Below, one piece after another: positions 5,601 to 61,166 of a stretch of 64,000 nucleotides of DNA. The position numbers and the translations under genes are program-made. This DNA is from a virus. The stretch's first letter is position 1. The number at the start of each line of letters is the position of its first letter. The stretch covers positions 96,001 through 160,000 of the IMG/VR virus record IMGVR_UViG_3300026484_000295, one strand, 5' to 3'. The notes beneath the pieces are model-generated. The model saw only the letters and a list, made by a program, of their open reading frames with translations. It was not told the DNA's origin and did not search any database.

Positions 5601-8600
5601 GAATTATATCCTTACTAAAAACATGTATATCATATAATAATGAATCTCTAACTCTTGCATTATGCATATCTGAACCAGGTTGATTAGCTCTATAAAACTT
5701 TTGTGAAATTAAATCACTATATGGATCTATTGGTAGCATTCGCATAAACCCAAAATCTATACGTATAATACCTAATGCATCAATTAATAAAGAATCTACC
5801 ATATTAGCAATTCTATCTAAATCAGCAGAGTTATGATAAAATTCATCGTATGCAAATTCATTATGTCCTGGTATAAATGTTCCATTATCAGTTATAAATG
5901 ATTCTCTTTCTCGTCCTGCCCAAATATGTATTTCTGTATGTATTGTATCAATTGGCTTTATCTGAATATTTTCACTTTCCACCATATCTAATTTAGCAAT
6001 ATATTTATCTTTTAATGAAATATCATTCATATCTAATAACTCTGTTTCAAAACCTTGTTCTAATAGTGAATCATAAACCATAGCACTTATATCCTGTCCC
6101 AATATTGTAGGATTGCTTTGATGAAAATATTCGTCAATAGCAAATTCATCATGTCCTGGAATATCAAGTACATCATATAGAATACATATATCAGTCCAAA
6201 TAGAATCCAATACAGCAATATTTAATTGTTCATAAAATTCGTGTAAAATAGTTTGATGCATTAAATCTTTCATACCGATTAATGTTGTTTGATCTTCAGG
6301 TCCAGAATATTCATCTAAACCATATAAATCCATAGGTAATTGTTCCATATCATAAAATCGAATATTAAATTCTGTATCAATGTCAATCAAATAATCTTCT
6401 ATAATATTTGTTTCCGTAACATCATCAATATCATTCATAATATCAATAGTAGGTATATAATCTATAAAATGTGATTCAATAATATTATCTTGTTCAAAAA
6501 TATTTTGTTTGATATGAAAATAATCATCAATATAAGTATCAACTACTTTCTCAAATTCATTTTCAGGTATGCATTCCCACCATAAATTTGCTAAATTAGG
6601 TGGAGTATATATAGATTCAGGTCTCTGCTTCCAAATTTCTTTATTTAGTACATACCATTCATCATCTATACCATATGTTTCATCATCCATAACCATCAAA
6701 TCATGTCCACCAACTTTTACACTTCTATCATAATCATATGGTATTTCATCATGGGCGCCACACAGTTTTAATCCTTCAGATGGAAAAATTACACCAATTT
6801 TAGATGTTATTATAGAACGGTCTATTGTTTGTATTCTAATGTTTTCACTAAACGCAGAAATAATATCGATGATATTTCTATCTCCTACCACAATATCTGC
6901 TTCTTTAGAAACTGCTTCTGCTGATGAACTTTCCATAATCTTAATAGTAAATATAATTTTATCTAAAACAGTATGAAAAGGTAAAAATTCATCAAATAAA
7001 TCTTGGACTATTTTCTCATAAATATCATAAGTTGCATCACCTTTACTATCCTTTATATTAATAGCCATAGATAAATCTAACATTGAAGATGCAATTACAT
7101 CTTCTGTAAATAATGCTAGTATCTTAGTTATTAAATCATAACGTTTGATATTAAATAAATAGTCAAAATAATGTTCTACTGGCTGCTTAATATTGTCTAA
7201 ATACGTTAATTCTTCAAGATCAGTTATTTCAAGATTTATGAATGAATTATATACTAAGTTTGAATCGGTTATTACTTTATAAATTTCATCTACATTGTTA
7301 CCTAAATCCGCAAGGAGAGTATGTTCTTTTATTTTATTATATTCCACAGATAAATTTGGATGATCAAATTGCTTTAATTCAAAATATATCACTTTTTTAA
7401 ATTCTTCAACAGTCTTTACATCATTCATAAGAATATAATTTGGTAAAAATCTCTCAACAAACCATCGAATTATAACTAAATTAACGCTTAATATATCAAA
7501 TCCCTGTTCAATAGATAACCGATTTAATACATCTAATACCTCAAATAAGTAATCTACAGGTTTATTTAGTTCATATTTAATAATATCTTCATATTCATTA
7601 TAATTATCAGAAAAACTAACATATGAATTAGTAATCATACTATAATCTAATAATCTATAATCTTTTTTAGAAAAAACACCATCATCAATAATAGGACGGA
7701 TTAACAATAACGGTTCTTTCCAATCAACAGACATTTTAATAAATCCATTTATATCTAAAATATCATATTTGAATGGTTTTTCAAAATGCACATGATTATT
7801 ATCTTGAATATCATTCCAGTCTGAATAATTTATAATTGGTTTATACGTTTCAATAGTATCTTTTTTTATCTTTTCTAATTCATCCGTAAAAATATAAAAT
7901 AACCGTTCTTTATCATACTGATTAAATGTCATCATTGAAACTTCAGAAACAATTGCATTATCAGCATTTTCTTTTATAAAATCAACAATATCTTTTAAAT
8001 TATTCTCTATCCATACATTATGAATCAAATAATAATCGAATTGTTCTAGTAAAAAATCATCTTCAAGATATTTTCTTATATATTCTATCAATATATTATG
8101 TATATTATTCGTATCTAAAGAAAAATGCTCATAATTATTATTTTTAAAAATATCAATCAAATCATCATATGAACCAGAAATCAATTTCGTCTCCATTAAA
8201 TCAGCAACTAATTCTTTTAATGTATCAACAATATAGATTGAAGATGGTAATACAGTTGAAACTCTAGCCCATTCAGATATGAATTTATTACGTTGAACCA
8301 TATAAACCGATGAAACATTTATATCATTTGAAATGGCTTTTAAATTTGACTTTAAATATGATTCCAATCCTTTTAAAGACGAAGTATTCGTTTTAAACAT
8401 TAAATATGGTTCTTCTTCTAAATTTTGAGGTTTTGCATTATTAATATCTATATCTAATTGTTCACCCAATAAATTATGTTGTTGTGAATCATTAATTTTA
8501 TCCTGTCCTCTCCCTAACATATATACATTATCAGGAATCATCATAGATGAATAAATATTTTCTCTACCAAAAAATTGACTGTTAGAATTTTGAGGTAATA

Positions 8601-20482: not shown

Positions 20483-23400
20483 TTATCTATATTGTGCTTT
20501 ACTTATATCTCTTTGACGTATATTATCACTAGAATCAACATCACGTTTATATGATTTTTGAGCAATCTTATTCTGTTTTGTAAATTCTTTTGATGTATTA
20601 TTAAGATGACCCAATTGTTGATTTTGAACCTGTAACATTTGCTCTAATAATTTTTCAACATTTAATAAGGTAGATGGTTCTGTTTTTTCATTATTTATTG
20701 TTGTTGAACTACTAGAATTATTATAGTCTTGTGTTGAAACATTATTCAATTTTGGACTTGTATTAATACCCGATGTACTAGTTCCAGATATAATACCGGA
20801 TGTTGGTTTTGATGCTTCAGATGAATTAGACATTACTAATTGGTCGAATATAGATACTAATGATTCAGGTATTACCTTCTCATTGGTATGAACAATTCCT
20901 GCTGCGCCTTTCATACCAGTTAGAGTTTCTAATATAGGATCTGGAGCCGATGGTGTTTTCCCTCCTTCTGCAAATCCAAAGAAATTACCAACAGATGATG
21001 CAACTGAAGAAATTGTATCTACAACCACACTAGATCCACCTCCACTAGATCCACCTCCACTAGATCCACCTCCACCTAGTAATCCACCTAGTGTACCACC
21101 AAGATTATCCATTATATTACCGAAATCAAATGATCCTAAGGCTCCAGTTAAGCTTTCCCCCATACTTCCAGTAATATTTTTAAAGGTTTCTGTTATGCTA
21201 CCATCACCATCAAATGCATCCATTACAGAATCTAATGGACCGCCTTCTGCAGTAAATGATGAAAATGTTTTAGATAGATTGCTTGTTAAAGCACCAGTTA
21301 CATTAGTTAAAGCATCACCAATACTAGTATCACCATTTAATACACCCGCAATATTTGTTGATACCAAATCTCCAGCACTACTTAAAGTCGTTGAAATGTC
21401 ACCAATCGTATTTGTTAAGGTTTTAGGTAAAATATTTGTTAATGAACTAGTTACATTAGTTAAAGCATCACCAATACTAGTATCACCATTTAATACACCC
21501 GCAATATTTGTATTTAAAGATGTTCCTACATCTTTAATACTTGAACCAACATTTTGTACTATATTTTGAACCGAGGTAGGTAATAACGACGTTACATTCT
21601 GTGCTAAATTTTGTAATGATTGAGATGCAGTCCCACCAATATTTGTTAATGCTTCAGTTATTGTACTCTTTCCATTAAAAACATTAGTTATTCCATCCAT
21701 AACACTTTTTCCAATATCAACTTGCCCACCAAAAAATGATGTAGCCGTCGCACCTAAACCTGTGGCTAGAATACCTAATTTATCTTTAAGTATATTTTTA
21801 ACATCATCAAGAGTATTAACCATAGTATTTGCTTGTTTATCATCAATACCTTCTTTTGTTGTCTTTTTAACTTGTTCATCTGCTATTTGTTTTTGTTTTG
21901 ATATAATCTCTTTTTGATTATTACGTTCTTTTATTTCTGTTAATTTATTACTATTTTCAGGTTTATTACTTGGTATTATTTTATCATAAGCATTACTAAC
22001 CGCACCTTTAACAGAATCAACTGGAGCACTAATAAATCCTTTGATACTATCTGTAATTTTACTAAATACATTAGTCTCTGTTTTTTTAGATTCTTTTTTA
22101 GATAATGTTTTATTATTTGAAGTTGAAAAATCTAATAATTTATAAAATGAATCAACTGTGTTTGCAGGTATAACAAATTCACCAGGACCATGGACTCCTG
22201 CAATACCATTAGGTTCTGCTGAACCGGTTGGATCTATTAATTGTGTTAATGCTTTGTTTACTGTATCACCAGTATACCCACCTTTAGCTTTAGCTTCTAC
22301 TTTTATGGTTTTTGCATCAGCCCCATTTTCAAGAGCTTTAATAAGTCTATCTAATTCATCCTCATACTTACCTTCTAACCCAGATTCAGATTTCATAGCT
22401 TTTAATTCTTTTAATCCAATTTCACCAGAATTTAATCCTTCTTGAACTTTAGTTGTGTTTAAAGTGTTGTAGCCATAATCATCAACCCAATAACCTTTCT
22501 CTTCAAGATCAGCAGATGATTTTTCTTCTTCTGAATCTGGACCCATACCAGGAATCATACTAAGAAGCCAATTTATAGCATTACCTATTGGTTTAGCAAC
22601 AACATCATACAATCCATCAAATATTTTTTTACCTGCATCTACAATACCATTAAACATATTTTTAAACATTTCTAAGAGACTCATATCTGGATCATTAAAA
22701 TAATCTACCACAGCCTGAAAAGGAGCAGTTACCAAATCGATAAATCCACCGAAAATATTTTTAACTCCATCTACAATTCCTTGGAATGTAGACATAATAT
22801 CAGTACCAAATATACCATCAACATAATCAATTATAAATTTAAATGGAGCAGTTACTAAATCAGTAAATCCATTAAATAATGATATTACACCGTTTTTTAC
22901 ACCATTAAATATCTGTTTTACGGCATCTATAAATGATAAGTCACTAGAAATCCATGCAGAAATAGCTAAAAATGGCGCTTTAACTATGTCAATAAATCCT
23001 CCTAAAATATTTGAAACAGCATTTACAATATTATTAAAATAACCTTTTATAGCATTTACAAATGAATTGAATACATTTGTAAAATTAGTACCAAAATATT
23101 CATCAACTAACCCAAAAATCCAATCAAATGGTTTTCGTACTAGATCAACAATACCATTTAAAGCGCCAGATATAGCATTTTTAACATTAGTAAAAATATC
23201 CTTTACCATAGTATCAAATGATATTTCACCTTTGAAAAATGACGTTATTGATTTAAAAGGTGCAGTTATAAGTTCATAAAATGTACCAAAGATATTTTTA
23301 ATTGCTGTAAATGAATTTCTGAAAGTTCCAAGCATATCTGTTCCAAAAATACTATCAACAAAACCCAAAACAGCTTTTAATGGAATTGTTATTATATCTA

Positions 23401-26400
23401 AAAAACCATCGAAAATTGTTTTTATACCCTCACCAATTTTACTAAAATTACCCGTAAATATACCAGTAATAATTTGGAAGAAACCATTAATATATTTAAA
23501 TATACCTTTAAAAACATCTCCAACCACACTTAATAAAGGCTGTATTCTATCAAATATCCATCCTATTACTTCACCAACTTTAGAAAAGAATGATCCTAAT
23601 GCACTACCCAACTCGTTAAATGCAGCAGTAATCCCCATTTCATCCATTTTTTTACCTAACCATGAAAAAGCTTCAGCTACTTTGTGAGCCACATGTTGCC
23701 CATCTAACATACCAAATGTTAATGCTTCAAGTGCTCCACCAACAGCTGAAGCTGATTTTTGAGTTAAAGAAGCTCTAGCTTCTAGTTTATTACCATATTC
23801 ATCTTCCCATTGACCATTAACAAAAACCGCTTTTCCCGTTTTTGATAATGATTCAGCGTATTTTTTTCCTTCTTCAGTATTTTTCGTTAATAATTCTTTT
23901 TGTGGTTCTAAATCTTTTCCAAACCATTCGGCTGCTTTACCCCAACCTTCCATTCCACCTTGGAGTGCTTTCATTGCGGCTCCAGCAAGAAAAGCAGGAC
24001 CCATCATACCTTTTAAACCGCCACCTATGGTTTTTAAACCACCACCAAGTTTAGTTTTAAAGTTTTTCCAGTTTTTACCTGCTTTTTGCCAAAAGTTACT
24101 ATTATCTTCCATTCCAGGAGGAAGTGCAGGTCCAGCACCCTGACTTCCTGTTTTAAATGACAATTTGATATTTTTAAAGGTATTTCCAATACTTGAACCC
24201 ACATTTGAAAAAACATCTTTTATTTTTCCAATTCCCGAAGATAAAGATTCTTTAAATCCTCCAAAAATATTTGATAATCCGGACACTGCACCTTTTGCAG
24301 ATTTACCAATAAAACCTATTATTTTTAATGAAGATTTACCAATGTTGGTTGCTAAATTTTTCATTGTATTTGGAAAATTCATTAAACCTTTTGTGAATTT
24401 ACCTATACCAATTGCTATACCTTTCGTAACATTCCAACCTGCAGTACCTATTAAATTAGTAGTTTTCATTATACCGGAACCAAGTTTCGATATAGTACCA
24501 CCGATTAAATCAAATGCTCCAGAGCTTTTTAATAGTTTTGCTAAAAATAATCCTCCCATAACCATTGCAATAGTATTAATATTTTCAGTTAAAAACGCTA
24601 AAGCTTTATTTAAATACGGAAGTACATCATTAACCAATTCCATAGTTTTATTTTGAAATGCATATAATGCTGAGGTCGCTTTTTGTTCTATAGTATCTTT
24701 AGTATTTTCAACCCCTGTACTATTAGCCTTTATTTGTTTTTGTAAATATTTAGGATCTTCGATCGTTTTTTTAACATCATCACCCGTTAAGGCACTACCA
24801 TCTTTTTTTGTTAAACCTGCCATAGTTAATTTTTTACCATCTTTAGCTAATTTAATTTGTTCTTTTATTAAATCAGCATTAGAAATTTTAAAAGCATCTT
24901 TTTGGTATTCTGCATATTTTTTAGGGTCATTCTTTTTTAACTCAGCAAGTTGAGTTTCACTCATTTTGGAAATAATCATCATTTGTTTTTTTGTTTCTTC
25001 GGCATTTTGATCATTCGATATAAGTTGATTTAACATCTTATCATAACTTTCTTTATCAGTAGCACCCATTGAAACTAAAAGTTTATCTAAATCAGCAGTT
25101 GATTTTTCTCCTTTTGAACGAGCTATAAATTCTCTAGTCCCTTCTTTTTGTGCAGCAACGGTAGCTGCAACACCTTGCTGATTTATTTTATTTGCTACTT
25201 CAGAATCTTTAGCCCAATCTTTATTTTGTTGTAGCATTTGAAGTTTTGCTTTCTCGCTTGCTGTTGCAGTACCATCATTAACTTTTTTAGCTAGGTCAGA
25301 ATACATAACCTGTTGTGCTTGAACATTAACTTGTTGCATTTGTAAAAATAATTTCTTATCTTTTTCACTTAATCCGTCAAATCCTACAAGAGATGCTTTA
25401 GCTGCTAAATCATTTGCTTCTTTTTGATTCATACCGATAGCGTCTAATCCCTGTTTTAAGAAATCAGCTCCTTTTCCACCCATCTGATTCATCATATTCA
25501 TATCTTTAATAGAATCAGCTATAGCTTCTGGGTCTGCAGCAATATTAGACACCTTCTCTAAAGTAGCTTTTATATATTCTTCTGAAAATCCAGCTTGTTT
25601 CATACCAGAGGCCATTCCACCCATAGTTTTTTCAATTTCTTTAGCAATATCAGCATTCATACCTTTTGTTATCAGTTTTGAATTTTCATGAATAGCTTTA
25701 ATTTGTTCAAGAGCATATTTATTACTAACCCCCATAGTTTTCGCAAGTGCTGAAGTTTGTGCAGCTAAATCATCCATCATTCCTGCTGGTGATTGTCCTT
25801 CTAAGACAGTTTTTAGTGAATTAAGTGCTTCCATTTGATTTTCAGCATACTCTTTACCCATAGTACGTTCAGACAATCTTTGTTTTACGGCTACCTTCTC
25901 CATTTCAACACGATTATTATTTAACGAAACATTAAATGTAGTTTGTAAATTATCAGATAGAGCTTTTAATCCAGCCGGATCTATCAAAGAATTAATGTGC
26001 ATATTTTGAAGATCTGAAATCATATTACCACTAGTATCACCCATTGATCTTGATATATCTAATTGATTATGATACATACCTATCGCTTTAGTAGCCATAG
26101 CCATTGCGGCTCCTAATGCTGCTACTGGTGCACCAACACTACTAATCATTCTTATAAAATCATTACCTACGTTTCTAACTTCACCAAATGATTTCATACC
26201 ATCACCAACATTATCAAATGCGGATGATAAGTGTCCTGCTGCATCACTCACTTTATCTAATTGATTAGAAAATCCTTGTGTACCTTGAGAAAGAATATCA
26301 AATTTAGATTTTGATTTTTGTACGGCTTCATCTAATTTTTTTTGAGATTTTGATTCATTTTTAATATTTTGATTGTCTACTTTTTTTTTGGTTTTACCTT

Positions 26401-27148
26401 TTATTGCAGGACCCAAATCATTTATAACTTTAGCATTTTCTTCTTGTAATTTTATAACTGTTGATAATGAATCTTGAGTAGATTTTAAATTCTCCGAAGC
26501 TTTTATAATTTCGGACTTGTCAGCACCATCATTAACTAGACGTTCAATTAGTTTTGTTTGACGTTCAGTTTCTATTTCTAATCGATTTTGTTCAGATATT
26601 AGATCATCACTTAAAGTATCTATACTATCTATAAAAGAAGAAGTATCACCATTAAAAGTGATATTACTACCATCTACATTATAAATATTTTCAATATTTT
26701 CTTTCAAACCATCATCAATCAAACTATCAAGTGTAAACGAATTATCACCCAATGAAATATTATTTGTATTTTCTGATTTCTCTTTAGATTTACCCAAATT
26801 TGCAACATATGAACCCAACATTTCTTTTGCTTCATTACTATTTGAATTCTTACGTTCTTCAGCAATCTCTTTAATAAATGCAGCAAACTTTTCATCATCT
26901 TGATCATTAGTAAAATCATGAGTAACTGAATTTAATTCTTTTTTTAATTCATCTGCAAAATTTTCTTCTAATTGATTTAGCCTGTTAATAATCTCAGTTG
27001 GATTAATATCATCATTAAGAAAATCATCTCGTAAATTTATTTTTTCACTTGATTGACCAGATAATTTTTCAACAAGTGTATAGAGCTTTGACATTTTCTC
27101 CGATGCATTTTTATAATCAATTATTTGACTACCTTTATTAAATTCCAT
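20483..27148 (-). CDS. Tape measure protein, 2221 aa
   Basis: Helical and Ala/Gly-rich; amphipathic Phe/Trp repeats; two A.GG....AG.(V)H..E.VIP motifs typical of tape measure C-termini. Confidence 0.8.
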   Translation of the reverse strand: MEFNKGSQIIDYKNASEKMSKLYTLVEKLSGQSSEKINLRDDFLNDDINPTEIINRLNQLEENFADELKKELNSVTHDFTNDQDDEKFAAFIKEIAEERKNSNSNEAKEMLGSYVANLGKSKEKSENTNNISLGDNSFTLDSLIDDGLKENIENIYNVDGSNITFNGDTSSFIDSIDTLSDDLISEQNRLEIETERQTKLIERLVNDGADKSEIIKASENLKSTQDSLSTVIKLQEENAKVINDLGPAIKGKTKKKVDNQNIKNESKSQKKLDEAVQKSKSKFDILSQGTQGFSNQLDKVSDAAGHLSSAFDNVGDGMKSFGEVRNVGNDFIRMISSVGAPVAALGAAMAMATKAIGMYHNQLDISRSMGDTSGNMISDLQNMHINSLIDPAGLKALSDNLQTTFNVSLNNNRVEMEKVAVKQRLSERTMGKEYAENQMEALNSLKTVLEGQSPAGMMDDLAAQTSALAKTMGVSNKYALEQIKAIHENSKLITKGMNADIAKEIEKTMGGMASGMKQAGFSEEYIKATLEKVSNIAADPEAIADSIKDMNMMNQMGGKGADFLKQGLDAIGMNQKEANDLAAKASLVGFDGLSEKDKKLFLQMQQVNVQAQQVMYSDLAKKVNDGTATASEKAKLQMLQQNKDWAKDSEVANKINQQGVAATVAAQKEGTREFIARSKGEKSTADLDKLLVSMGATDKESYDKMLNQLISNDQNAEETKKQMMIISKMSETQLAELKKNDPKKYAEYQKDAFKISNADLIKEQIKLAKDGKKLTMAGLTKKDGSALTGDDVKKTIEDPKYLQKQIKANSTGVENTKDTIEQKATSALYAFQNKTMELVNDVLPYLNKALAFLTENINTIAMVMGGLFLAKLLKSSGAFDLIGGTISKLGSGIMKTTNLIGTAGWNVTKGIAIGIGKFTKGLMNFPNTMKNLATNIGKSSLKIIGFIGKSAKGAVSGLSNIFGGFKESLSSGIGKIKDVFSNVGSSIGNTFKNIKLSFKTGSQGAGPALPPGMEDNSNFWQKAGKNWKNFKTKLGGGLKTIGGGLKGMMGPAFLAGAAMKALQGGMEGWGKAAEWFGKDLEPQKELLTKNTEEGKKYAESLSKTGKAVFVNGQWEDEYGNKLEARASLTQKSASAVGGALEALTFGMLDGQHVAHKVAEAFSWLGKKMDEMGITAAFNELGSALGSFFSKVGEVIGWIFDRIQPLLSVVGDVFKGIFKYINGFFQIITGIFTGNFSKIGEGIKTIFDGFLDIITIPLKAVLGFVDSIFGTDMLGTFRNSFTAIKNIFGTFYELITAPFKSITSFFKGEISFDTMVKDIFTNVKNAISGALNGIVDLVRKPFDWIFGLVDEYFGTNFTNVFNSFVNAIKGYFNNIVNAVSNILGGFIDIVKAPFLAISAWISSDLSFIDAVKQIFNGVKNGVISLFNGFTDLVTAPFKFIIDYVDGIFGTDIMSTFQGIVDGVKNIFGGFIDLVTAPFQAVVDYFNDPDMSLLEMFKNMFNGIVDAGKKIFDGLYDVVAKPIGNAINWLLSMIPGMGPDSEEEKSSADLEEKGYWVDDYGYNTLNTTKVQEGLNSGEIGLKELKAMKSESGLEGKYEDELDRLIKALENGADAKTIKVEAKAKGGYTGDTVNKALTQLIDPTGSAEPNGIAGVHGPGEFVIPANTVDSFYKLLDFSTSNNKTLSKKESKKTETNVFSKITDSIKGFISAPVDSVKGAVSNAYDKIIPSNKPENSNKLTEIKERNNQKEIISKQKQIADEQVKKTTKEGIDDKQANTMVNTLDDVKNILKDKLGILATGLGATATSFFGGQVDIGKSVMDGITNVFNGKSTITEALTNIGGTASQSLQNLAQNVTSLLPTSVQNIVQNVGSSIKDVGTSLNTNIAGVLNGDTSIGDALTNVTSSLTNILPKTLTNTIGDISTTLSSAGDLVSTNIAGVLNGDTSIGDALTNVTGALTSNLSKTFSSFTAEGGPLDSVMDAFDGDGSITETFKNITGSMGESLTGALGSFDFGNIMDNLGGTLGGLLGGGGSSGGGSSGGGSSVVVDTISSVASSVGNFFGFAEGGKTPSAPDPILETLTGMKGAAGIVHTNEKVIPESLVSIFDQLVMSNSSEASKPTSGIISGTSTSGINTSPKLNNVSTQDYNNSSSSTTINNEKTEPSTLLNVEKLLEQMLQVQNQQLGHLNNTSKEFTKQNKIAQKSYKRDVDSSDNIRQRDISKAQYR
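21296..21511. repeat. Exact 63-bp direct duplication within the tape measure gene (21296-21358, 21449-21511)
   Basis: Both copies encode TNIAGVLNGDTSIGDALTNVT; 153-bp (51-codon) spacing. Confidence 0.9.
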
Positions 27149-36168: not shown

Positions 36169-37476
36169 CTATAAATATGAATATGCAATTTCAGAAATTA
36201 TTTCATTTGTTTCAATAATTTTGAACTTCCCACCCATATCTTTAAATTTATTTATCTTATTTATAGTTGATTCAATAGTTTCAGTAATATTAGATTTATT
36301 GATAGGCGAATATAACAAATATTGATTTGATATAGAAACGATTGGCTGCCCTTCAAAGTTTTCCATAATAAGAACTTTAGGTTTATTTGATTCCGGAACA
36401 TCTATATATGATATAATTTCTTTAAATAAATTATCAACAATTATCATATTCTCAATTTCTAAATTTTCAGATTTAAGATTACGTATAATTGTTTCAAGAT
36501 ATTTTTCTTCATTCTTAATTTCAGTTCCGAAAATCTTTGTTTGTTCTAATCTCTTTTTTGCTAAAGAACGATATTTCATTTCAATAGGAGATAATTCAAT
36601 TGCAGGCAATTCTTCATTAGAAATAATCTTAGTGTCTAAATCATACGATACATTATCAGTATAATCAATAAGTATTGATTTTTGAGATTCAAGTTTAAAT
36701 TTAACAGCAACAACTTCAAGTTTTTTATCTATGCGGTCTTTGATAACCTCATACGTTACTTTAATATCAGATTTATCATTAACCTCTTGTACAGCTTTTT
36801 TTAATATATCTCTATTAAAATTAGCCCATTTTTGTAAAGACGGTTTATTAATAATATCAACATTCAAAATAGCCTTTAATATATTTATCTCTATACGTTT
36901 TTCATACGAACCAACATAATCTTTTAAAAGTTCATACAATAATTTTGAATATTTCGATTTTAATCCTACTTGGATTTGTAATGAGAATTTAGTATAATAA
37001 TTTTTTACATTCAAAAACATTATCAATAATTCTGGCTCTATCCATACTTTAACTCTCTTGCTAGTAGTTTGTTTATCTTTCGACCATGCTATTTTTCTTA
37101 AAAAATGAAATAAAATAGACTCTTGTGTTTTATTTTTATGTAAAACATTTGTTAAAACCTGTATTTTAGATATTTCATGTAAATTTTTTATTATCTCATT
37201 ATAATATCCATTTTTATATTTACCTAATACGTCAGATATTGATTGTAAGTTAATTTCAAAATGATTTAGAGATGCCCATTCATAAATCTCTTCTTCCGTT
37301 AATTCCTGTTGTAACATAATATCAGAAATAAAGAAAAACATAGTCCCAATTAAATCAACTTGAATAGGTGTTAAAACAGCAAATTCTTCTTTTATAAAAT
37401 CTTTATAATATAAAACTTGACATAACTCTGATGGTTTTCTTAATTCTAAGTTTTTTGTTAAATCTTTTTTACTCAT
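36169..37476 (-). CDS. rep: Plasmid-type replication initiator protein (Rep_3 / RepB family, winged helix)
   Basis: YTKFSL.....LKSKYSKLLYELLKDY, I....LK.IL, W.NF.RDILKKAV.EVN.KSDI.V.YE..K....V.AVKF. Confidence 0.9.
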   Translation of the reverse strand: MSKKDLTKNLELRKPSELCQVLYYKDFIKEEFAVLTPIQVDLIGTMFFFISDIMLQQELTEEEIYEWASLNHFEINLQSISDVLGKYKNGYYNEIIKNLHEISKIQVLTNVLHKNKTQESILFHFLRKIAWSKDKQTTSKRVKVWIEPELLIMFLNVKNYYTKFSLQIQVGLKSKYSKLLYELLKDYVGSYEKRIEINILKAILNVDIINKPSLQKWANFNRDILKKAVQEVNDKSDIKVTYEVIKDRIDKKLEVVAVKFKLESQKSILIDYTDNVSYDLDTKIISNEELPAIELSPIEMKYRSLAKKRLEQTKIFGTEIKNEEKYLETIIRNLKSENLEIENMIIVDNLFKEIISYIDVPESNKPKVLIMENFEGQPIVSISNQYLLYSPINKSNITETIESTINKINKFKDMGGKFKIIETNEIISEIAYSYL

Positions 37477-37507
37477 AGTTTCAACCTTATTTTTTTGTAT
37501 TTATTAG

Positions 37508-37515
37508 ATTTTACA
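37508..37515 (-). promoter_or_regulatory. TGTAAAAT early-type (sigma70 -10-like) promoter of rep
   Basis: Same TGTA(T/A)AAT box precedes gp47 (38222), gp46 (39353), dnaE-C (41238), tmk (48299, -), uvrD (57829), dnaE-N/gp55 (60626) and gp45 (61812). Confidence 0.7.
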
Positions 37516-37525
37516 ATCACAATTA

Positions 37526-38050
37526 AAATTACACAATCTAATCACAGTTTCTTCCCATTTTTAATATTTTGTAAGTATATTTATCCATATTTATATAGCA
37601 TTTTATCTTTTTTTTAAATTACACAATCTAATCACAGTTTTTTTCTTTTTATTCTTATCATGTATAATTATGGCAAAAAAAACTTAAAAAAAAAATCTTA
37701 GTTAAATTTAATATAAATTTTAGGCAATTTTCATAAGAAAAAAACTTAAAAAAAAAATCTTAGTTATGGCATTTTTTTTAATTAATGGTTTTCAATATAA
37801 TATTTTCTTATATCTTATTTTTGTATATTGTCAATAAAATATATATTTAAATAATATTTAACTAAAAAATATTTTTTAAGGTATATAAAAAACTAAAAAT
37901 AAATACGTAAGTTAAAATTTAAAAATTTAACTAAGAATTATTTTTTGAGTTAAAAAATGGGTTTTTTGCCGCATTTTAACACTATAAAATAAAGGTACTT
38001 TTTATGGTTCACAATCTAATCACGAAAACTACACAATCTAATCACAGTTT
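37526..38050. repeat. Iterons: four copies of core cacaatctaatcac
   Basis: Cores at 37532, 37622, 38010 and 38032. Copies 1-2 share 25 bp (aaattacacaatctaatcacagttt); copies 3-4 are 22 bp apart. Confidence 0.88.
37681..37951. repeat. Second 24-bp repeat family: two direct and two inverted copies
   Basis: aacttaaaaaaaaaatcttagtta at 37681 and 37743; inverted variants taactaaaaaatattttttaaggt (37859) and taactaagaattattttttgagtt (37928). Confidence 0.75.
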
Positions 38051-38261
38051 TTTTCGAGGGTCACTGGGAAACACTATATTTTCTCGTGCAAAAATAGGAC
38101 TGTACAAAATACAAATAGAATAAAGGATAGATATATAGCCTTCGGCATGAAATAGATTATTTGATCCAGACTATCTTTATTTGATATGATTTATTTTCAT
38201 ATAATACCTATTAAAATTAATTGTATAATAAAAAACAAATTATTAAATTTAAAGGTAAGTT

Positions 38262-39317
38262 ATGTCAAATAAAATTACAATGAGTACAGATTGGCATTTT
38301 GGTAAATCAAATGGGAGATTCGATAATATTATTTTAAATGGTATTATTGAACAATGTAATTATGCAAAGAATAATAATATCAAAGTTATGATTAATCTTG
38401 GCGATACATTAGATGTAAAACAATCAATTACTACTAGTACTATGAATTATTTAGCTAAAGCATTTCAATTAATAAATGATACATTCGATAAAGTTTATGT
38501 ATTAGTTGGTAATCATGATATGTCAAAGAAAACTTATAATAATGATGGGCATAATTTGCATATTTTTTCTGGTTATAATAATATTGAGGTTATCGATTCT
38601 CCAAAAATAATTTCGATATTTGATTCAGATTTTTATTTCATGCCTTATTTCCCAAATGATTATCTTAAAAATCATATTTTTGAGGAAGCTAGATTTATGT
38701 GTGCTCATATTGAAGTCCAAGGTTTTATGTTGAATCAATTTGTTAAAGCTGAAGATGGATTGAATATGCAAGCTATAACTAATATATATGATAATGTTTT
38801 TTTAGGTCATTTTCATAAGCGACAATCTAGAGGAAATGTATCTTATATTGGTAATATGTGTAGATTTTTTTATGGTGAAAATGATGAAGAACGTGGTTGG
38901 ACTATTCTAGATGTTGATACGAATAAGTATGAATTTATTGAATACCATCATCCGAAAATGTACAAATTTAAATTATCGACATTAATGAGTCTAGATGAAG
39001 ATTTAAATAAAATATTTGAACCAGGCGACAATCTCAAACTAGTTATTGATAAACAATTAAAATATTCTGAATTAGAGGAATTTAAAACAAAACTAATTTT
39101 GGATTATAAAATTAATGATTTAGTATTAGACGATCAATTTTATGCGTTTGATATTGATGAAATAGATGATGAAGATGAAACAGATGACAATGTTGCTGAT
39201 TTAGATCCTAGTTATATGGAATATCTATTAACAGAAATGACTAAGATTATTACAGATGATAACGCTGTAGAAGCTCTAGAATATCTTAGAGAAAAATCTA
39301 AAGATTATCAGGAATAA
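38262..39317 (+). CDS. gp47: Recombination endonuclease subunit gp47 (Mre11/SbcD)
   Basis: TDWHFG, LGDTLD, VGNHD, AHIE..GF, FLGHFHKRQ...NV.YIGN. Confidence 0.95.
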   Translation: MSNKITMSTDWHFGKSNGRFDNIILNGIIEQCNYAKNNNIKVMINLGDTLDVKQSITTSTMNYLAKAFQLINDTFDKVYVLVGNHDMSKKTYNNDGHNLHIFSGYNNIEVIDSPKIISIFDSDFYFMPYFPNDYLKNHIFEEARFMCAHIEVQGFMLNQFVKAEDGLNMQAITNIYDNVFLGHFHKRQSRGNVSYIGNMCRFFYGENDEERGWTILDVDTNKYEFIEYHHPKMYKFKLSTLMSLDEDLNKIFEPGDNLKLVIDKQLKYSELEEFKTKLILDYKINDLVLDDQFYAFDIDEIDDEDETDDNVADLDPSYMEYLLTEMTKIITDDNAVEALEYLREKSKDYQE

Positions 39318-39389: not shown

Positions 39390-41231
39390 ATGAAGATTAA
39401 ATTTCGTAAAATTGAAATACAAAATTTTTATAGTTATGGTGATAAACAGGAAGTAGATTTAGATCAATTTAAAAGTACAGTTGTTTTGATAGATGGTATA
39501 GATAAAGATACAGAGGGGTCAAAAATTGGTTCTGGTAAATCATCATTCCTTGCAGCGATAACATATGCATTATTTGGTGAAACTGTTTCAAACGTAAAAG
39601 CTAATGAGATTGTAAATTATATAAAAGGTAAAAATGCATTAGTGGTTTTGACATTTGAAATGAATAATACACTCTTTAAAATTGAAAGGGGTAGAAAACC
39701 AAATATATTGAATATCTATCAAGAAATTGATAAAGATGAAAAAGGTACTATTCAATGGGAAAATATATCACGAGCTGATATTAAAGATAATGATAAACTT
39801 ATTGTCTCATTAATAAAAATCAATTTTGAAACATTTTTACAAACATCATTATTTTCTGTAGCTTCAGAACATAATAAACCTTTTTTAAATATGACGCCAT
39901 CAAATCAAAAAAAAGTTCTTGAAAATATCTTTAATTTTGATTTATTTAATAATATGATTAATGAGATAAAAGATGATGTTCGAGATAAACAGATTATTAG
40001 AGCTGAATTAGAATCTTCATTGAGAGAGGTTCAAATTTCAAATGAACAAATAGAATCACAAATAGAAAGACTGAAGGAATCTTCAGAGAAATTTGAAAAA
40101 CGTAGAAATAAACGTATTAAAGAACTGGAAGAAAGTATAGTTTTTTATAATAATATTGATATTGAAGAAGAAAAAGATAAATTTGCATTTATAGATGAGT
40201 TAAAAGAACATAAAACTAATATTATGTCAACTATTTCAGAACTAAAAATTGAGTTGAAAGATATTCAAACTGAATTAGCACGAGTTGATAGAGAAATTGA
40301 ATTGTTAGTCAACGATTATCAATCAGAAGAAGAAAATAATAAAAGTTTGAAAGGTAATATCTGTCCAACTTGTCATCAAGATTGGGAAGATCCAGATGCA
40401 ATAATAGCAAGTGATGATAAATTAAAAAAAATTGGGTCAGAAATAATTTCATTTGAGAAGAGCTTAAATGAATTTGAGGAAGTTGAACAAAAAATCTTAA
40501 AAAAAATTAAAGATAAAAAAAGTATTTTATTTGAAATTAAAGAAGCGATAGATGAAATCGAAACACAAATTGATAAAAAAGAATTGGATAATATTGATAT
40601 TATATTATCGAATATTAAGAAAGAATTAAAAAATGAAATGAATCAAGAAAACCATTATTTGATGGAAATAGAGGCAAATAAATCCTTACTTCGGGAAATA
40701 GATACAGAAACATTAGATAAAGTTGATATATGGATACAAAATATCAAAGCATTTATCAAATTGTCTGAAGATCCTAAAACAAGAGGTAAATTTTTAAGAA
40801 AATTTATAAAACAGTCCAATGAAATTTTACGAGGGTTTAAAAAATTAATACCTGATTATAATATTCATATTCAATTTAACCCTGATTTCACCATTAGGGT
40901 TATGAAATTGGGGAAAGAAGTTAATCCTGCATCTTTATCGAATGGTGAAAAGAGGATTGGAAATATTATGATAATGATAGCATTAATGAAAGTATTTAAA
41001 CTTAAAAATAATGTTGAATTTAACGCTATTTTTATGGATGAAGTTCTTGATAGTGGTATTAATGGTGCGTTATTAGAAAGTGTTTACACTTTTATAAAAA
41101 ATGTAGCAAAAGAAGAACAAATGCGGGTTTATTTGATTTCTCATAGAGAAGAAATTAAAGAAAAAGTTAAAGAAATTATAATGGTTACAAAATCAAGAGG
41201 TATTTCAACTATTGAAATAAATCCTATATGA
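39390..41231 (+). CDS. gp46: Recombination ATPase gp46 (Rad50/SbcC)
   Basis: NFYSYG, Walker A GSGKSS, zinc hook CPTC, signature LSNGEK, Walker B FMDEVLD, LISH. Confidence 0.95.
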   Translation: MKIKFRKIEIQNFYSYGDKQEVDLDQFKSTVVLIDGIDKDTEGSKIGSGKSSFLAAITYALFGETVSNVKANEIVNYIKGKNALVVLTFEMNNTLFKIERGRKPNILNIYQEIDKDEKGTIQWENISRADIKDNDKLIVSLIKINFETFLQTSLFSVASEHNKPFLNMTPSNQKKVLENIFNFDLFNNMINEIKDDVRDKQIIRAELESSLREVQISNEQIESQIERLKESSEKFEKRRNKRIKELEESIVFYNNIDIEEEKDKFAFIDELKEHKTNIMSTISELKIELKDIQTELARVDREIELLVNDYQSEEENNKSLKGNICPTCHQDWEDPDAIIASDDKLKKIGSEIISFEKSLNEFEEVEQKILKKIKDKKSILFEIKEAIDEIETQIDKKELDNIDIILSNIKKELKNEMNQENHYLMEIEANKSLLREIDTETLDKVDIWIQNIKAFIKLSEDPKTRGKFLRKFIKQSNEILRGFKKLIPDYNIHIQFNPDFTIRVMKLGKEVNPASLSNGEKRIGNIMIMIALMKVFKLKNNVEFNAIFMDEVLDSGINGALLESVYTFIKNVAKEEQMRVYLISHREEIKEKVKEIIMVTKSRGISTIEINPI

Positions 41232-41265: not shown

Positions 41266-41916
41266 ATGAAATTTTCAGATTTAGATTTAGATATACCTTC
41301 TAAATTGTCAAATGATATTAGGTCTAAATTTATAAGGGCGTCGGTTAAAAATAATGGAAAATATCAACCTCATCCAGCAGGTATATATTTGTATAAAAAT
41401 ATACCTCAATTTAACAAAATTGCAATAGCCGATTATAAATTTATGGAGAATAATAATTATCAAAAAATTGATATTTTGAATAATACATTTTTAGATAATA
41501 TTACAAATGATGAAATGGATGAATTTATAGATTTAATTGAAATGGAAGAAATTGATTGGAATAAACTATATAAGTATAATGAACCATATCAACTTAGTAA
41601 ATATCCATCGATATTAAAAGAATTTCAGGTTTCATCGGTATTTGATATTGCTATGGTTTTATCTATAATAAGACCTGGATCAATTAAAAAATATGATACT
41701 TTAAAAAAAGCTATGAAAATAAAAAAAAAGATTAGTAAAGATATAAAGTATTATGATATTTTAAAAGACACATATGGTGTCCCCATTTTTAATGAACAAT
41801 ATAAAGAAATGGGTATTGATGATGGTGTGTATAGATATAAAAAACCGCATGCTATTGGCTATGCGTATGTATTATTGATTGATTTTTTAAAAAAAAGTCA
41901 TAAAATTAAGGAATAA
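41266..41916 (+). CDS. dnaE: Split minimal DNA polymerase III alpha, catalytic (C-side) fragment
   Basis: SDLDLD (PDFDVD), HPAG, KIDIL (KFDFL), IRPG, TYGV..F.EQ, Y.YKKPHA..YA in DnaE order. Confidence 0.8.
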   Translation: MKFSDLDLDIPSKLSNDIRSKFIRASVKNNGKYQPHPAGIYLYKNIPQFNKIAIADYKFMENNNYQKIDILNNTFLDNITNDEMDEFIDLIEMEEIDWNKLYKYNEPYQLSKYPSILKEFQVSSVFDIAMVLSIIRPGSIKKYDTLKKAMKIKKKISKDIKYYDILKDTYGVPIFNEQYKEMGIDDGVYRYKKPHAIGYAYVLLIDFLKKSHKIKE

Positions 41917-41948: not shown

Positions 41949-42018
41949 GATATAAATAAAAATGAATTATAAAAATAAGGTTGATATCTTATTCAAATTA
42001 AAAAAAAAGGAAGTTAAT

Positions 42019-42303
42019 ATGACAAAAGCAGATATGGTAGTACAACTACAAGAAATCATTGGTGAAGAAAAAGTTTCTAAAGCAGAATGTGAAAGAATCT
42101 GGAATGGTTTAATTGAAATTATTGCAGAAGAAGTAAAAGATGGTGGAGAAGTAAAATTTGGATCGTTATTTAAAGTGTATAAAAAACATAAAAATGCTAG
42201 AAAAGTAAGAAATCCAAGAACTGGTGAAACTTTTATGAAAGAAGCTAGAGATGAACTAGGCTGTAAAGTTATGAGAGAAGGTAAATACCTTATTCAAGAT
42301 TAG
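42019..42303 (+). CDS. hup: HU/IHF family DNA-binding protein
   Basis: MTKADMV..L, V.FG..F......AR.VRNPRTGE. Start revised to 42019 (AAGGA RBS); late box at 41951. Confidence 0.9.
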   Translation: MTKADMVVQLQEIIGEEKVSKAECERIWNGLIEIIAEEVKDGGEVKFGSLFKVYKKHKNARKVRNPRTGETFMKEARDELGCKVMREGKYLIQD

Positions 42304-57867: not shown

Positions 57868-59673
57868 ATGGGTATGACAAACGAACAAGAAGAATTTTCT
57901 AAAACACGAGACACCCATATATTGGCACTAGCATCAGCAGGAGCAGGAAAAACCCATACATTAATTCATTTTATTCACGATAAAATTAAAAGTGGATTGC
58001 GTCCAAACCAGATAATTTCATTTTCATTTACTCGTAAAGCTGCAAATGAATTGAAAGATAGAGTTAATAGTCATTTTAAAGGTATGGATTTTGATTTTAA
58101 ATATATATCGACTATACATTCTTTTTGTTGGAATGAAATTATTAAGCCCTTTTATAATGAAATTGGTTATACATCAATACCAACTATTGTACATGAGTTT
58201 CCAGATGAATTTATGGAAAAAGAATATAAAGAACACGGTAAAAAACAAGATAGAGCTGGATTTAATCGCAAATTTATGGATATAGTTTCTAAAGATTTAC
58301 AAGAAGAAGATTTTACGGCTCCAGAGACAGTACGCTTACTACAATATCTTGTTAGTCATAATCTAACTATGTTTGATTTTATGATTCATTTAGCTAATTT
58401 TGTATTGAAAGAAGAGCCAGTTAAATTACAAAAACATATAGGTACAATAGGCTATGTTATAACTGATGAAGCGCAAGATTTAAATCCAGCACAGTATAAA
58501 TTTACTAAGTTACTGCAGTCAGTTTTTAGTAATGAAAAGAATAATGTAAATTTAGTAAAAGTTGGTGATTTTAAACAATCGATATATGGATTTAGAGGTA
58601 GTGATCCTAGAATAATAAACACATTTGTTGATGAATTTGATCCTGTTGTTAAAATATTATCATATAATTTTAGGAGTGCTCCAGAAATTGTAGATTTAGC
58701 TAATGAGATTGCCGAAACTATTGATTTAGGGAATGATGCACTTAATGAGTCGAAATATGCTCAACATGGGTCTAGTATATCTGAAGGAGAAGTTTATAAC
58801 ATATACGATGTTGAAGAATTTATTGATGAATTAAAATTGATTGAAAAACCATTAGAGCAAACTTGTATTTTGGCTAGAACTAATATGGTTATAAAATCAT
58901 TAGCTAAGATTCTTGGAAAATTAGAAATACCGTATTATCTACATACTGAATTTGATATATTAAAGAGATCAGAAGTAAAATTTTTAATGAGTATGTTGAG
59001 TGTTGTGAGTCATGGATATAATAAAGCTATAGTTTTGGATATTATTAAAGCTGCAAAAGGTGGGATACCTATGAAAGTTGCTGCATCAATTAATAAATGT
59101 GATAATATGCAAATGGTTGGAAGAATGTTTCAAGATATTAAAAAAATACCAGAAATTATAAAAATTTATAATGATTTAGAAAAAGGGTTGTTTAATGCGG
59201 CGATACCTAAAATCGCAAAACTTATGGAAACTTCAAAAAAATCATCTGAACAAATTCAACAATCATTGGAACGTTTTTATCGTGATTTGAATACTGTTAA
59301 AACAACTGAAGGATTGGATTCTTGGATGGAAGCATTAGAAGAATTATTGTTTGAAGCTCAATTTTTAGAAGAAAAACAACAAGGTAAAGTACAGTTAATG
59401 ACAGTTCATAAAAGTAAAGGGTTACAATGGGATAATGTTATCTTTATTTATGATTTCAGTTTATTAGAGCAGGTAGAAAATGATTTTTATGATTTAGAAG
59501 AAGAAAAGCGTGTAGTTTATACTGCTGTAACTCGACCAACAACTAATTTAGTTATCTGGGATTTAGAACAACAGATGATTAGTAGTTACTTTACAAAAGG
59601 GTCATTGTTAAAGATGATAGAAAATGCTCTAAAAAAAGGTATTTTAGATATAGAGGATTTTTCAAAATATTAA
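57868..59673 (+). CDS. uvrD: UvrD/Rep/PcrA superfamily 1 helicase
   Basis: ASAGAGKT, FTRKAANEL, STIHSF, DEAQD, VGDFKQSIYGFRG, YNFRS, ILARTN, MTVHKSKGLQW, EEKRVVYTAVTR. Confidence 0.95.
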   Translation: MGMTNEQEEFSKTRDTHILALASAGAGKTHTLIHFIHDKIKSGLRPNQIISFSFTRKAANELKDRVNSHFKGMDFDFKYISTIHSFCWNEIIKPFYNEIGYTSIPTIVHEFPDEFMEKEYKEHGKKQDRAGFNRKFMDIVSKDLQEEDFTAPETVRLLQYLVSHNLTMFDFMIHLANFVLKEEPVKLQKHIGTIGYVITDEAQDLNPAQYKFTKLLQSVFSNEKNNVNLVKVGDFKQSIYGFRGSDPRIINTFVDEFDPVVKILSYNFRSAPEIVDLANEIAETIDLGNDALNESKYAQHGSSISEGEVYNIYDVEEFIDELKLIEKPLEQTCILARTNMVIKSLAKILGKLEIPYYLHTEFDILKRSEVKFLMSMLSVVSHGYNKAIVLDIIKAAKGGIPMKVAASINKCDNMQMVGRMFQDIKKIPEIIKIYNDLEKGLFNAAIPKIAKLMETSKKSSEQIQQSLERFYRDLNTVKTTEGLDSWMEALEELLFEAQFLEEKQQGKVQLMTVHKSKGLQWDNVIFIYDFSLLEQVENDFYDLEEEKRVVYTAVTRPTTNLVIWDLEQQMISSYFTKGSLLKMIENALKKGILDIEDFSKY

Positions 59674-60659: not shown

Positions 60660-61166
60660 ATGGATGAATTAGCACCAGGTCTGATATATCTTTCTGATTT
60701 GAATAAACTTGTATATTCAAACTCATATATTATAAATTCTGGAAGTAAATTGAGTTCAATTTCTAATGATTTAGGAACATATGCTGAGTATATTTCAGAC
60801 GATGATAGAGATTTATTATATGCAAAGTCTATTGGAGTTAAAGTTTTTAATGAGATAGTAAATGAATTTGATTATTCGCTTATAAATGATATTGATACTG
60901 ATAGAGAAATTGATAAATTAAAAAAACAATTTTCTGAATTAAGTGATTTAATTGAAGATGAATATGATTATATCAAGTTATCAGCGCATAATATTCTTTT
61001 ATTAAAAATGGCTTTTATACTTAAAAAACATTTAGATTCATTAAATACATCAGTTTATTTAATGCGTGGATCTGGAGTATCATCATTCATATTTTATTTA
61101 ATAGGTTTAAATAAAGTCAACCCTATTAAATTTGGGTTAGATTATAAAAATTTTTGGAATAATTAA
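60660..61166 (+). CDS. dnaE: Split minimal DNA polymerase III alpha, N-side (GRGS) fragment
   Basis: MRGSGVSSFIFYLIGLNKVNPIKFGL...F aligns with DnaE [31 protein letters not shown]. Confidence 0.8.
   Translation: MDELAPGLIYLSDLNKLVYSNSYIINSGSKLSSISNDLGTYAEYISDDDRDLLYAKSIGVKVFNEIVNEFDYSLINDIDTDREIDKLKKQFSELSDLIEDEYDYIKLSAHNILLLKMAFILKKHLDSLNTSVYLMRGSGVSSFIFYLIGLNKVNPIKFGLDYKNFWNN

Follow-up and report, generated by a model that had tools for sequence, protein, structure and literature searches.

Does a giant phage of the T4 type start its replication from a plasmid origin? The question is raised by a stretch of 64,000 nucleotides, bases 96001-160000 of the 172,404-bp IMG/VR record IMGVR_UViG_3300026484_000295 (hereafter the window; positions refer to it unless stated otherwise), in which a gene for a plasmid-type initiator of the Rep_3 family lies beside an AT-rich intergenic gap with direct repeats (iterons), among genes of a T4-like phage. 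A first-pass annotation, made from the sequence alone, had read the locus as a long-resident plasmid replicon and its bearer as a candidate phage-plasmid that persists as a low-copy episome or starts lytic replication in plasmid fashion. The comparisons described below give good support to a real, conserved origin at this gap, and we think it probable that it is a functional Rep_3/iteron origin, kept across a clade of phages, that most likely starts vegetative phage replication. The initiator gene and its putative sites are as follows.

36169-37476, minus strand: rep, encoding a 435-aa Rep_3 initiator (Pfam, AF2 model, Foldseek, dN/dS)
37530-37549, minus strand: iteron 1 (proximal), CTGTGATTAGATTGTGTAAT on the rep strand, at -70 from the rep ATG, 100% conserved in the closest relative, G001
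37620-37639, minus strand: iteron 2, 90 bp from iteron 1 (repeat search, conservation)
37650-38000, no strand: AT-rich centre of 14.8% GC, candidate unwinding region (GC content, motifs)
38008-38049, minus strand: iterons 3 and 4 (distal pair), 22 bp centre to centre, a pair found in all five lineages compared

The open reading frame (ORF) at 36169-37476 is intact and is a true gene of the Rep_3 initiator family, with the two-winged-helix fold of RepE of plasmid F and pi of R6K. The family was assigned with PF01051 and PF21205, and both domains score above the Pfam cut-offs (Rep3_N 44.4 bits against 22.4, Rep3_C 36 bits against 21.1); the profile search that the first-pass annotation had proposed as a check on its Rep_3 call was thus positive, and a six-frame search gives 48.4 bits for Rep3_N. 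The protein also matches PHROG 4402, "replication initiation protein", and the family profile matches R6K pi (2nra) and F RepE (1rep) in the PDB by sequence. Two winged-helix domains (WH1 and WH2) occupy approximately residues 10-270 and are followed by a family-specific C-terminal domain (approximately 295-435). Identity to RepE is only 15-18%. The AlphaFold (AF2) model (predicted local distance difference test, pLDDT, 82.5) finds its best Foldseek matches in complexes of RepE54 with iteron DNA (7soz, 1rep and 8aan; E about 1e-10 to 2e-11), with a template modelling (TM) score by target of 0.78-0.82 against iteron-bound monomeric RepE54. It matches pi (2nra) at E 4.5e-7, and its fit to the dimeric repressor form (2z9o among the matches) is much poorer (TM 0.40). 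The C-terminal domain (285-435) has no Pfam match even at E 5; its top PDB alignment (Z 5.5) covers a helical hairpin only, and its Atlas matches all score below 0.8, one cluster with L_lactis_RepB_C being a weak lead. Between the window's own record (G000) and a 289,880-bp relative that is 91% identical to it (G001, also lineage L002), the ratio of nonsynonymous to synonymous substitution rates (dN/dS) of rep is 0.05 at a dS of 0.49, with similar values for sbcC and the tail sheath gene. These values show that rep is under strong purifying selection.

The gap between rep and the divergent gene sbcD (37477-38261) measures 785 bp and has 19.4% GC, in a window of 26.4% GC, and it contains no ORF longer than 40 aa. 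Four exact copies of CACAATCTAATCAC, all read on the plus strand, lie in it at 37532, 37622, 38010 and 38032 (spacings of 90, 388 and 22 bp), and three of them extend to about 20 bp. The gap and its four repeats, two of them 22 bp apart, are therefore as first described. The repeat is specific to the gap: no copy occurs elsewhere in the 172-kb record, a shuffled 64-kb window yields 0.84 matches when two mismatches are allowed, and the 290-kb relative has one chance match with two mismatches outside its own gap and nothing more. The AT-rich centre holds an exact 29-nt direct repeat (37676-37704 and 37738-37766) and five copies of the motif TAACT[ACT]A[AG]A (at 37696, 37758, 37859, 37928 and 37944), out of 11 in the whole window. 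This motif often occurs in inverted pairs flanking a run of A or T; a search of the centre for the inverted pattern AACTNAA-N6-12-TTNAGTT gave no match. It could be the site of a conserved host or phage protein, e.g., the HU-like product encoded nearby.

At cluster level Rep has 37 relatives at 49-63% identity, beyond which comes a second tier at about 28-43%, and the contigs that carry these relatives reach 265, 347 and 496 kb. Those used for comparison are the following.

L002 (G001): Rep identity 96%, contig of 289,880 bp
L003: Rep identity 60%, contig of 264,683 bp
L005: Rep identity 53%, contig of 496,182 bp
L027: Rep identity 62%, contig of 18,831 bp
L028: Rep identity 61%, contig of 87,921 bp

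The gene order sbcD - gap - rep - 320-aa gene - 131-aa gene - approximately 500-aa gene - tail sheath is kept in L002, L003 and L005, while L027 and L028 retain the gap layout, rep and the 320-aa gene. Counting the window, L003, L005, L027 and L028 as five lineages, the design of the gap is the same in all of them: on the distal side two sites separated by exactly 22 bp, then an AT-rich centre, then two proximal sites with a spacing of 90-102 bp; L003 and L028 add a fifth site, placed centrally. The gaps of the relatives hold four to eight copies of TAACT[ACT]A[AG]A, nearly all between the distal and the proximal iterons, and the sequence of this motif is conserved across lineages, unlike that of the iterons. 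The latter have a common frame, GTG-N6-TTGTG, with variable bases that are specific to each lineage, as seen when they are written on the rep strand.

Window: CTGTGATTAGATTGTGTAAT
L003: TCGTGTAAGTTTTGTGAAGT
L028: TCGTGTAAGTCTTGTGGAGT
L027: TCGTGATTCGTTTGTGAAAC
L005: GTGTGAAAGTATTGTGTAGT

The most similar pair of Rep proteins (81% identical) has 18 of 20 iteron bases in common, and the other pairs have 10-15. Between G000 and G001, the iterons are 100% conserved in a gap that is otherwise 85% identical. Together with the low dN/dS of rep, this conservation and co-variation of the iterons is what selection acting jointly on a protein and its cognate sites would be expected to leave.

The picture changes at deeper divergence. 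Reps of the second tier come from phage-like contigs of 56-306 kb, a few of which have genes of T4 type: a 306-kb relative (G002) carries a Gp23 capsid gene and the L024 contig an rIIB gene. Just upstream of their genes these Reps have classic tandem arrays of three or four iterons, mostly at a spacing of 31-32 bp. Genomes may hold several copies (two in G002, two in G003, a further Rep-bearing related contig, and four Rep_3 paralogs in L024), and each paralog examined in the relatives has its own iterons. In L024 (ENA ERZ27262648 k141_25039), the four paralogs lie at 7.6-19.4 kb beside a gene with a SIR2 domain, and a gene resembling IS605 OrfB/TnpB is found 4.5 kb upstream of the first of them. 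The rep genes of G002 lie at 66.7-67.8 kb and 185.8-187.0 kb, and its homologous divergent junction between sbcD and a 326-aa gene (about 44.3 kb; L039 3807-4000) has no rep and a gap of only 194 bp. Since this junction is empty and rep is elsewhere, the cassette has moved over deeper evolutionary time. The claim of a real, long-resident origin thus holds only within the clade, where synteny extends to 53% Rep identity, iterons co-vary and rep is constrained. Loss of rep from close relatives, or insertion scars around it, had been named as signs against the first reading; rep is kept in close relatives, and the window shows no insertion scars or flanking mobility genes.

How Rep may be expressed can be read from the motifs on either side of the gap.

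37508-37515, minus strand: -10-like motif of the rep promoter, TGTAAAAT, 31 nt upstream of the rep ATG
37513-37524, minus strand: half-iteron ATTGTGATTGT, a conserved motif and candidate operator overlapping the rep -10
38046-38160, no strand: conserved non-coding block, with a box AAGGATAGATATA and a hairpin GCCTTCGGC, adjoining the distal pair
38222-38229, plus strand: divergent -10-like motif for sbcD, TGTATAAT; the outward TGTA(A/T)AAT is conserved in all five lineages

The motif TGTAAAAT resembles the extended -10 promoters of low-GC Campylobacterota. About 18 genes of the record have it 20-36 nt upstream, among them rep, sbcC, one for a DnaE fragment and the C-terminal half of polB; a run of T or A usually precedes it, and the TGTA(A/T)AAT downstream of the proximal iteron, on the rep side, is kept in 5/5 lineages. 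General sigma-70-like matches in the gap are no commoner than in shuffled sequence (16 vs 12 +/- 3), and a terminator scan of the gap found none. The end of the proximal iteron lies 16 nt upstream of the -10-like motif (about 17 bp had been proposed). The window, L003, L027 and L028 have (T/C)GTGA(A)TTGTA before and overlapping this motif, and L005 has a variant of it; the conserved half-iteron over the -10 reads (T/C)GTGATTGTA. This half-site is direct, and no inverted pair of half-iterons was seen in the rep operator region. Given a conserved promoter-proximal iteron and a half-iteron over the -10, autoregulation is a reasonable expectation: it is plausible that Rep controls its own promoter through the proximal iteron, in line with the autorepression suggested at first, and the arrangement is conserved in all five lineages.

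Two further candidates in the gap were rejected. An inward-facing TGTATAAT at 37661-37668 might have driven a transcript into the origin, and it is conserved neither in G001 nor in any other lineage. The block at 38046-38160 is about 97% identical to G001, vs 85% over the whole gap, and its box and C(UUCG)G-type GC hairpins recur at the same place in relatives. As a small RNA, it has no Rfam match (E up to 1), RNAalifold gives 0 pairs, and its single-sequence folds do not surpass those of shuffles (z -0.8 to +0.2).

The genome around the locus is that of a T4-like phage by gene content (gp23, gp55, gp46/47, sheath, baseplate and neck genes), as originally proposed. The record encodes a gp23-type capsid protein (E 3e-80) and a gp55-type late sigma factor (PHROG 234). 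It also encodes a tail sheath (PHROG match), a sheath stabiliser, a baseplate hub and a head-tail adaptor, whose syntenic counterpart in relatives belongs by Pfam to the gp13 family, and Pfam finds gp13, gp15 and T4_baseplate in the syntenic relatives L003 and L005. Isolated phages are far off (top tblastn identities of 22-27%), and a megablast of 15 kb against phage records gave no match. The record is linear (172,404 bp, 27% GC), with a CheckV completeness of 61% (87% for G001; G000, G001 and G002 span 61-87%). In an incomplete linear fragment, placing the replicon at the phage's centre is meaningless. Genes to the left of the gap are mostly on the minus strand and those to its right mostly on the plus strand, as first noted. 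Among the latter are three genes that may bear on replication.

38262-39317, plus strand: sbcD/gp47-like nuclease gene (PHROG 100, 4e-57)
39390-41231, plus strand: sbcC/gp46-like nuclease gene (PHROG 77, 3.5e-84)
41962-42303, plus strand: HU/IHF-type DNA-binding protein, 3.7 kb from the gap (PHROG 379, 3e-17)

The two nuclease genes hold the same position beside the gap in L002, L003 and L005. The syntenic gene of the HU/IHF-type protein matches Pfam Bac_DNA_binding in L003 and L005, and its product is a possible architectural cofactor at the origin.

The rest of the replication machinery hints that Rep recruits host enzymes. Rep_3 plasmid initiators recruit host DnaB and DnaG. In G000, G001 and G002 (61-87% complete), no helicase of the DnaB_C, AAA_25 or phrog_19 type and no primase (Toprim_2, DNAG_N, Prim-Pol) was detected. 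A clear DnaB_C match in G003 served as positive control, and the helicase search is thus able to find such genes; the search for gp59_N in the same three records gave no match with a silent control and is hence uninformative. With no gene of the DnaB/gp41, gp59 or DnaG type detected, helicase and primase would most likely be supplied by the host. If these absences hold in complete genomes, an initiator that recruits DnaB and DnaG would fill the hole. The window does encode a 601-aa SF1 DNA helicase (Dda/UvrD-like; 57868-59673), which matches PHROG 1967, has a Dda-like C-terminus and lies behind TGTAAAAT; the Dda of T4 is most important at oriE (PMC3016281). Small separate ORFs (41266-41916 and 60660-61166) match pieces of the alpha subunit of DNA polymerase III or of other DNA polymerase families, in keeping with the split DnaE of T4-like jumbo phages (PMC7824862).

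These elements can be assembled into a putative sequence of events. Rep would be made from an early, host-type promoter as a RepE/pi-like protein with two winged helices, and its monomers would bind the four 20-bp iterons, the pair on the sbcD side with a spacing of 22 bp and the pair beside the rep promoter with one of 90 bp. The iterons bracket about 390 bp of DNA with 15% GC, and binding would open this tract, probably helped by looping and by the HU-like protein encoded nearby. The replicative helicase and primase, most likely those of the host, would then be loaded and theta-type replication would start first, before T4-style recombination-dependent replication takes over later by means of the gp46/47 encoded next door. 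The proximal iteron and the half-iteron over the rep -10 would meanwhile give Rep feedback on its own promoter.

Several points weigh against such an origin. The iterons are laid out 2 + 1 + 1 over 500 bp, unlike the usual tight tandem array (only the distal pair, at 22 bp, qualifies as one, the remaining spacings being 388 and 90 bp), and the half-iteron at the promoter is direct, not an inverted repeat as used by RepE. Binding and origin firing are deduced from sequence and a structural model. Rep need not be essential, as T4-like phages can replicate without a dedicated initiator; T4 starts replication without a dedicated origin-binding protein, by R-loops and recombination (PMC3016281). 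The records being incomplete, their missing parts could carry genes for a helicase and a primase, and G000 and G001, being 91% identical, are not independent of each other. The composition of the DNA is equivocal as well. The first-pass annotation had expected a switch in GC skew near the gap, and the minimum of the cumulative skew does fall there (about 134 kb in G000, i.e., about 38 kb in the window, and about 120 kb in G001). Yet raw skew mainly tracks the coding strand, at +0.15 to +0.22 on either arm. When strand is regressed out, a residual arm effect remains, with its best breakpoint at the gap in both G000 and G001; the effect is clearest at third codon positions, where, with strand controlled, the breakpoint lies at 133-134 kb in G000 and at 119-122 kb in G001 (coefficient 0.13-0.14), gene class being a possible confound and the two genomes non-independent. 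In G002, the junction without rep still shows a strand switch and a cumulative skew minimum, and the strand-corrected breakpoint (50-65 kb) matches cleanly neither this junction nor the rep at 67 kb. Given this control and the strand confound, the skew is compatible with an origin and is not evidence for one. Four plus-strand genes of G002 at 44.5-50.6 kb (326, 128 and 657 aa, and the sheath) have a negative third-position skew, unlike almost all other plus-strand genes there; a recent inversion or an effect tied to replication may explain this.

If the module is a functional replicon, it could instead serve a carrier state, in which Rep and its iterons keep the genome as an episome at low copy number, with other routes of initiation for lytic growth. 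Low-copy theta plasmids classically replicate from a Rep_3 gene with iterons, the iteron and half-iteron close to the rep promoter point to tight autoregulation, and a separate distal pair could allow copy control by handcuffing, as with incA of P1. Lytic-looking phages with a plasmid rep have also been proposed as phage-plasmids, e.g., crAssphage with RepL (PMC10983915). Yet six-frame profile searches of G000 (61% complete) and G001 (87% complete), with controls that worked, detected no ParA (PF13614, PF01656), ParB (PF02195), tubulin/TubZ (PF00091) or tyrosine integrase, and, of the repressors of CI/Cro type, neither S24 peptidase (PF00717) nor HTH_3 regulator (PF01381), other types of repressor lying outside the search. 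The search for ParM (PF06406) gave no match with a silent control and is uninformative, and, because both records are incomplete, the absence of partition and immunity genes is not proof. No relative of Rep was found by tblastn in 72,556 plasmid records (PLSDB; query P0001) or 50,697 phage records (queries P0001 and P0048), or by a pattern scan of the GTDB species genomes, which sees only fairly close relatives. The promoter motif of rep is the same as that of sbcC and the C-terminal half of polB, and relatives with two to four Rep paralogs, each with its own iterons, look more like phages with multiple vegetative origins. Beyond the type of replicon, there is thus no support for an episomal state, and the low-copy episome of the first-pass annotation, for which partition and repressor genes had been a suggested check, is an unlikely reading. 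A double life of a T4-like jumbo phage infecting hydrothermal-vent bacteria, as a low-copy Rep_3 episome without classical partition genes and with a full virulent-type T4 programme, is doubtful to the same degree. More likely than this double life is a lineage that gave up the T4 entry by helicase, loader and primase in favour of a plasmid initiator commandeering DnaB and DnaG of the host.

Rep might also have little to do with starting replication. It could be a regulator or exclusion factor that controls the divergent early promoters of rep and sbcD, or hinders related phages or plasmids, with replication starting elsewhere by T4-style R-loops and recombination. The repeats do flank two conserved divergent TGTA(A/T)AAT promoters, dimeric proteins of the RepE type also repress (2z9o is among the structural matches), lineage-specific iterons would give a specificity akin to incompatibility, and G002 has the same gene junction working without rep. 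A pure operator, however, would not need the conserved tract of 15% GC, with conserved motifs of its own, that the repeats bracket; the model of Rep fits the monomeric, iteron-bound initiator (TM 0.8) far better than the dimeric repressor (TM 0.40), distant members of the family adjoin textbook tandem iteron arrays, and the strand-corrected skew switches at the gap. We consider this role improbable. More improbable still is a selfish cassette of plasmid origin, inserted in the phage as a passenger without a role for it. The position of the cassette does differ among lineages (the G002 junction is empty, with rep at 67 and 186 kb), and the four paralogs of L024 lie near an IS605-type gene. Such a passenger is nevertheless hard to reconcile with a position fixed across lineages down to 53% Rep identity, a dN/dS of 0.05, iterons perfectly conserved amid a diverging gap, the absence of the family from the plasmid and bacterial genome collections searched, and the lack of scars or mobility genes noted above.

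An origin for vegetative replication, the reading that we prefer, can be set against known systems. Its closest likeness is with the Rep_3 theta plasmids (mini-F RepE, R6K pi, pSC101/pPS10 RepA), with which it has in common two winged-helix domains and a fold match to RepE54 and pi, direct repeats of about 20 bp by the gene, of which two have a spacing of 22 bp, a neighbouring AT-rich tract and a repeat over the rep promoter. It differs from them by its place in a giant T4-like phage of virulent type without a tblastn match in PLSDB, by an extra conserved C-terminal domain of about 140 aa without a clear structural match, by iterons split 2 + 1 + 1 around about 390 bp rather than in tight tandem, by a direct half-site where RepE has an inverted-repeat operator, and by the lack of detected partition genes (ParA, ParB, tubulin; the ParM search being uninformative). 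For lytic use, the closest functional analogy is lambda O at ori-lambda. Lambda O, an initiator encoded by the phage, recognises four direct repeats with an AT-rich tract next to them and brings host DnaB to the origin. Its family is unrelated, however, its origin lies inside the O gene, and lambda has its own helicase loader, P. P1 (RepA, incC/incA) and crAssphage (RepL) are likewise tailed phages with a plasmid-type initiator, and P1 has iterons on both sides of its control region. Unlike in these phages, no partition, addiction, immunity or recombinase genes were detected here and the gene content is of T4 type (gp23, gp55, gp46/47, tail); nor is the initiator of the RepL family of crAssphage, whose own proposal as a phage-plasmid rests on a plasmid rep gene (PMC10983915).

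Within T4 itself, oriE, the one T4 origin that bears iterons, is also an origin of a T4-type phage with direct repeats near a strand and skew switch. T4 RepEA and RepEB are small proteins not known to belong to Rep_3, whereas here the initiator is a bona fide Rep_3 protein, encoded next to repeats that change along with it. The 12-nt "iterons" of oriE, evenly spaced direct repeats that were likened to those of R6K gamma, lie close to where transcription changes direction and the compositional bias shifts; the origin depends on an early promoter, and the link of the repeats to its activity was never established (PMC3016281). A survey of 224 jumbo-phage genomes mentions neither iterons nor Rep initiators (PMC7824862), and we found no description of Rep_3 initiators in T4-like or jumbo phages in the searchable literature, whose incomplete coverage makes this no proof of novelty. 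A preprint on a Fusobacteriaceae RPA initiator was set aside, as it concerns another Rep family (RPA, replication initiator protein A). A clade of uncultured T4-like phages, with contigs of up to 496 kb, thus carries a plasmid-type initiator with co-evolving iterons. If these modules function, giant T4-like phages would regularly rely on initiator-dependent origins, the origins of such uncultured phages would be predictable from sequence, and plasmid replicons would have been recruited into genomes of virulent-type phages. If the lack of helicase, loader and primase is real, dependence on host DnaB and DnaG would be a testable determinant of host range.

Some observations concern the record as a whole. 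Only one sequencing run, a metagenome from a hydrothermal vent and possibly the source sample itself, contains the full stretch; seven others contain a small share of it, and no RNA sequencing run is among those carrying part of it. The contig starts inside an in-frame short tandem repeat within an ORF (15-nt unit, bases 1-140 of the record) and ends inside another (18-nt unit, GATGGACAACCTCAA..., 172,250-172,404), also within an ORF. Both ends are therefore assembly breaks and not genome termini, and the tandem repeats probably caused them. Among the structural genes, two giant ORFs stand out on the minus strand, at 2632-11142 (2836 aa) and 20483-27148 (2221 aa).

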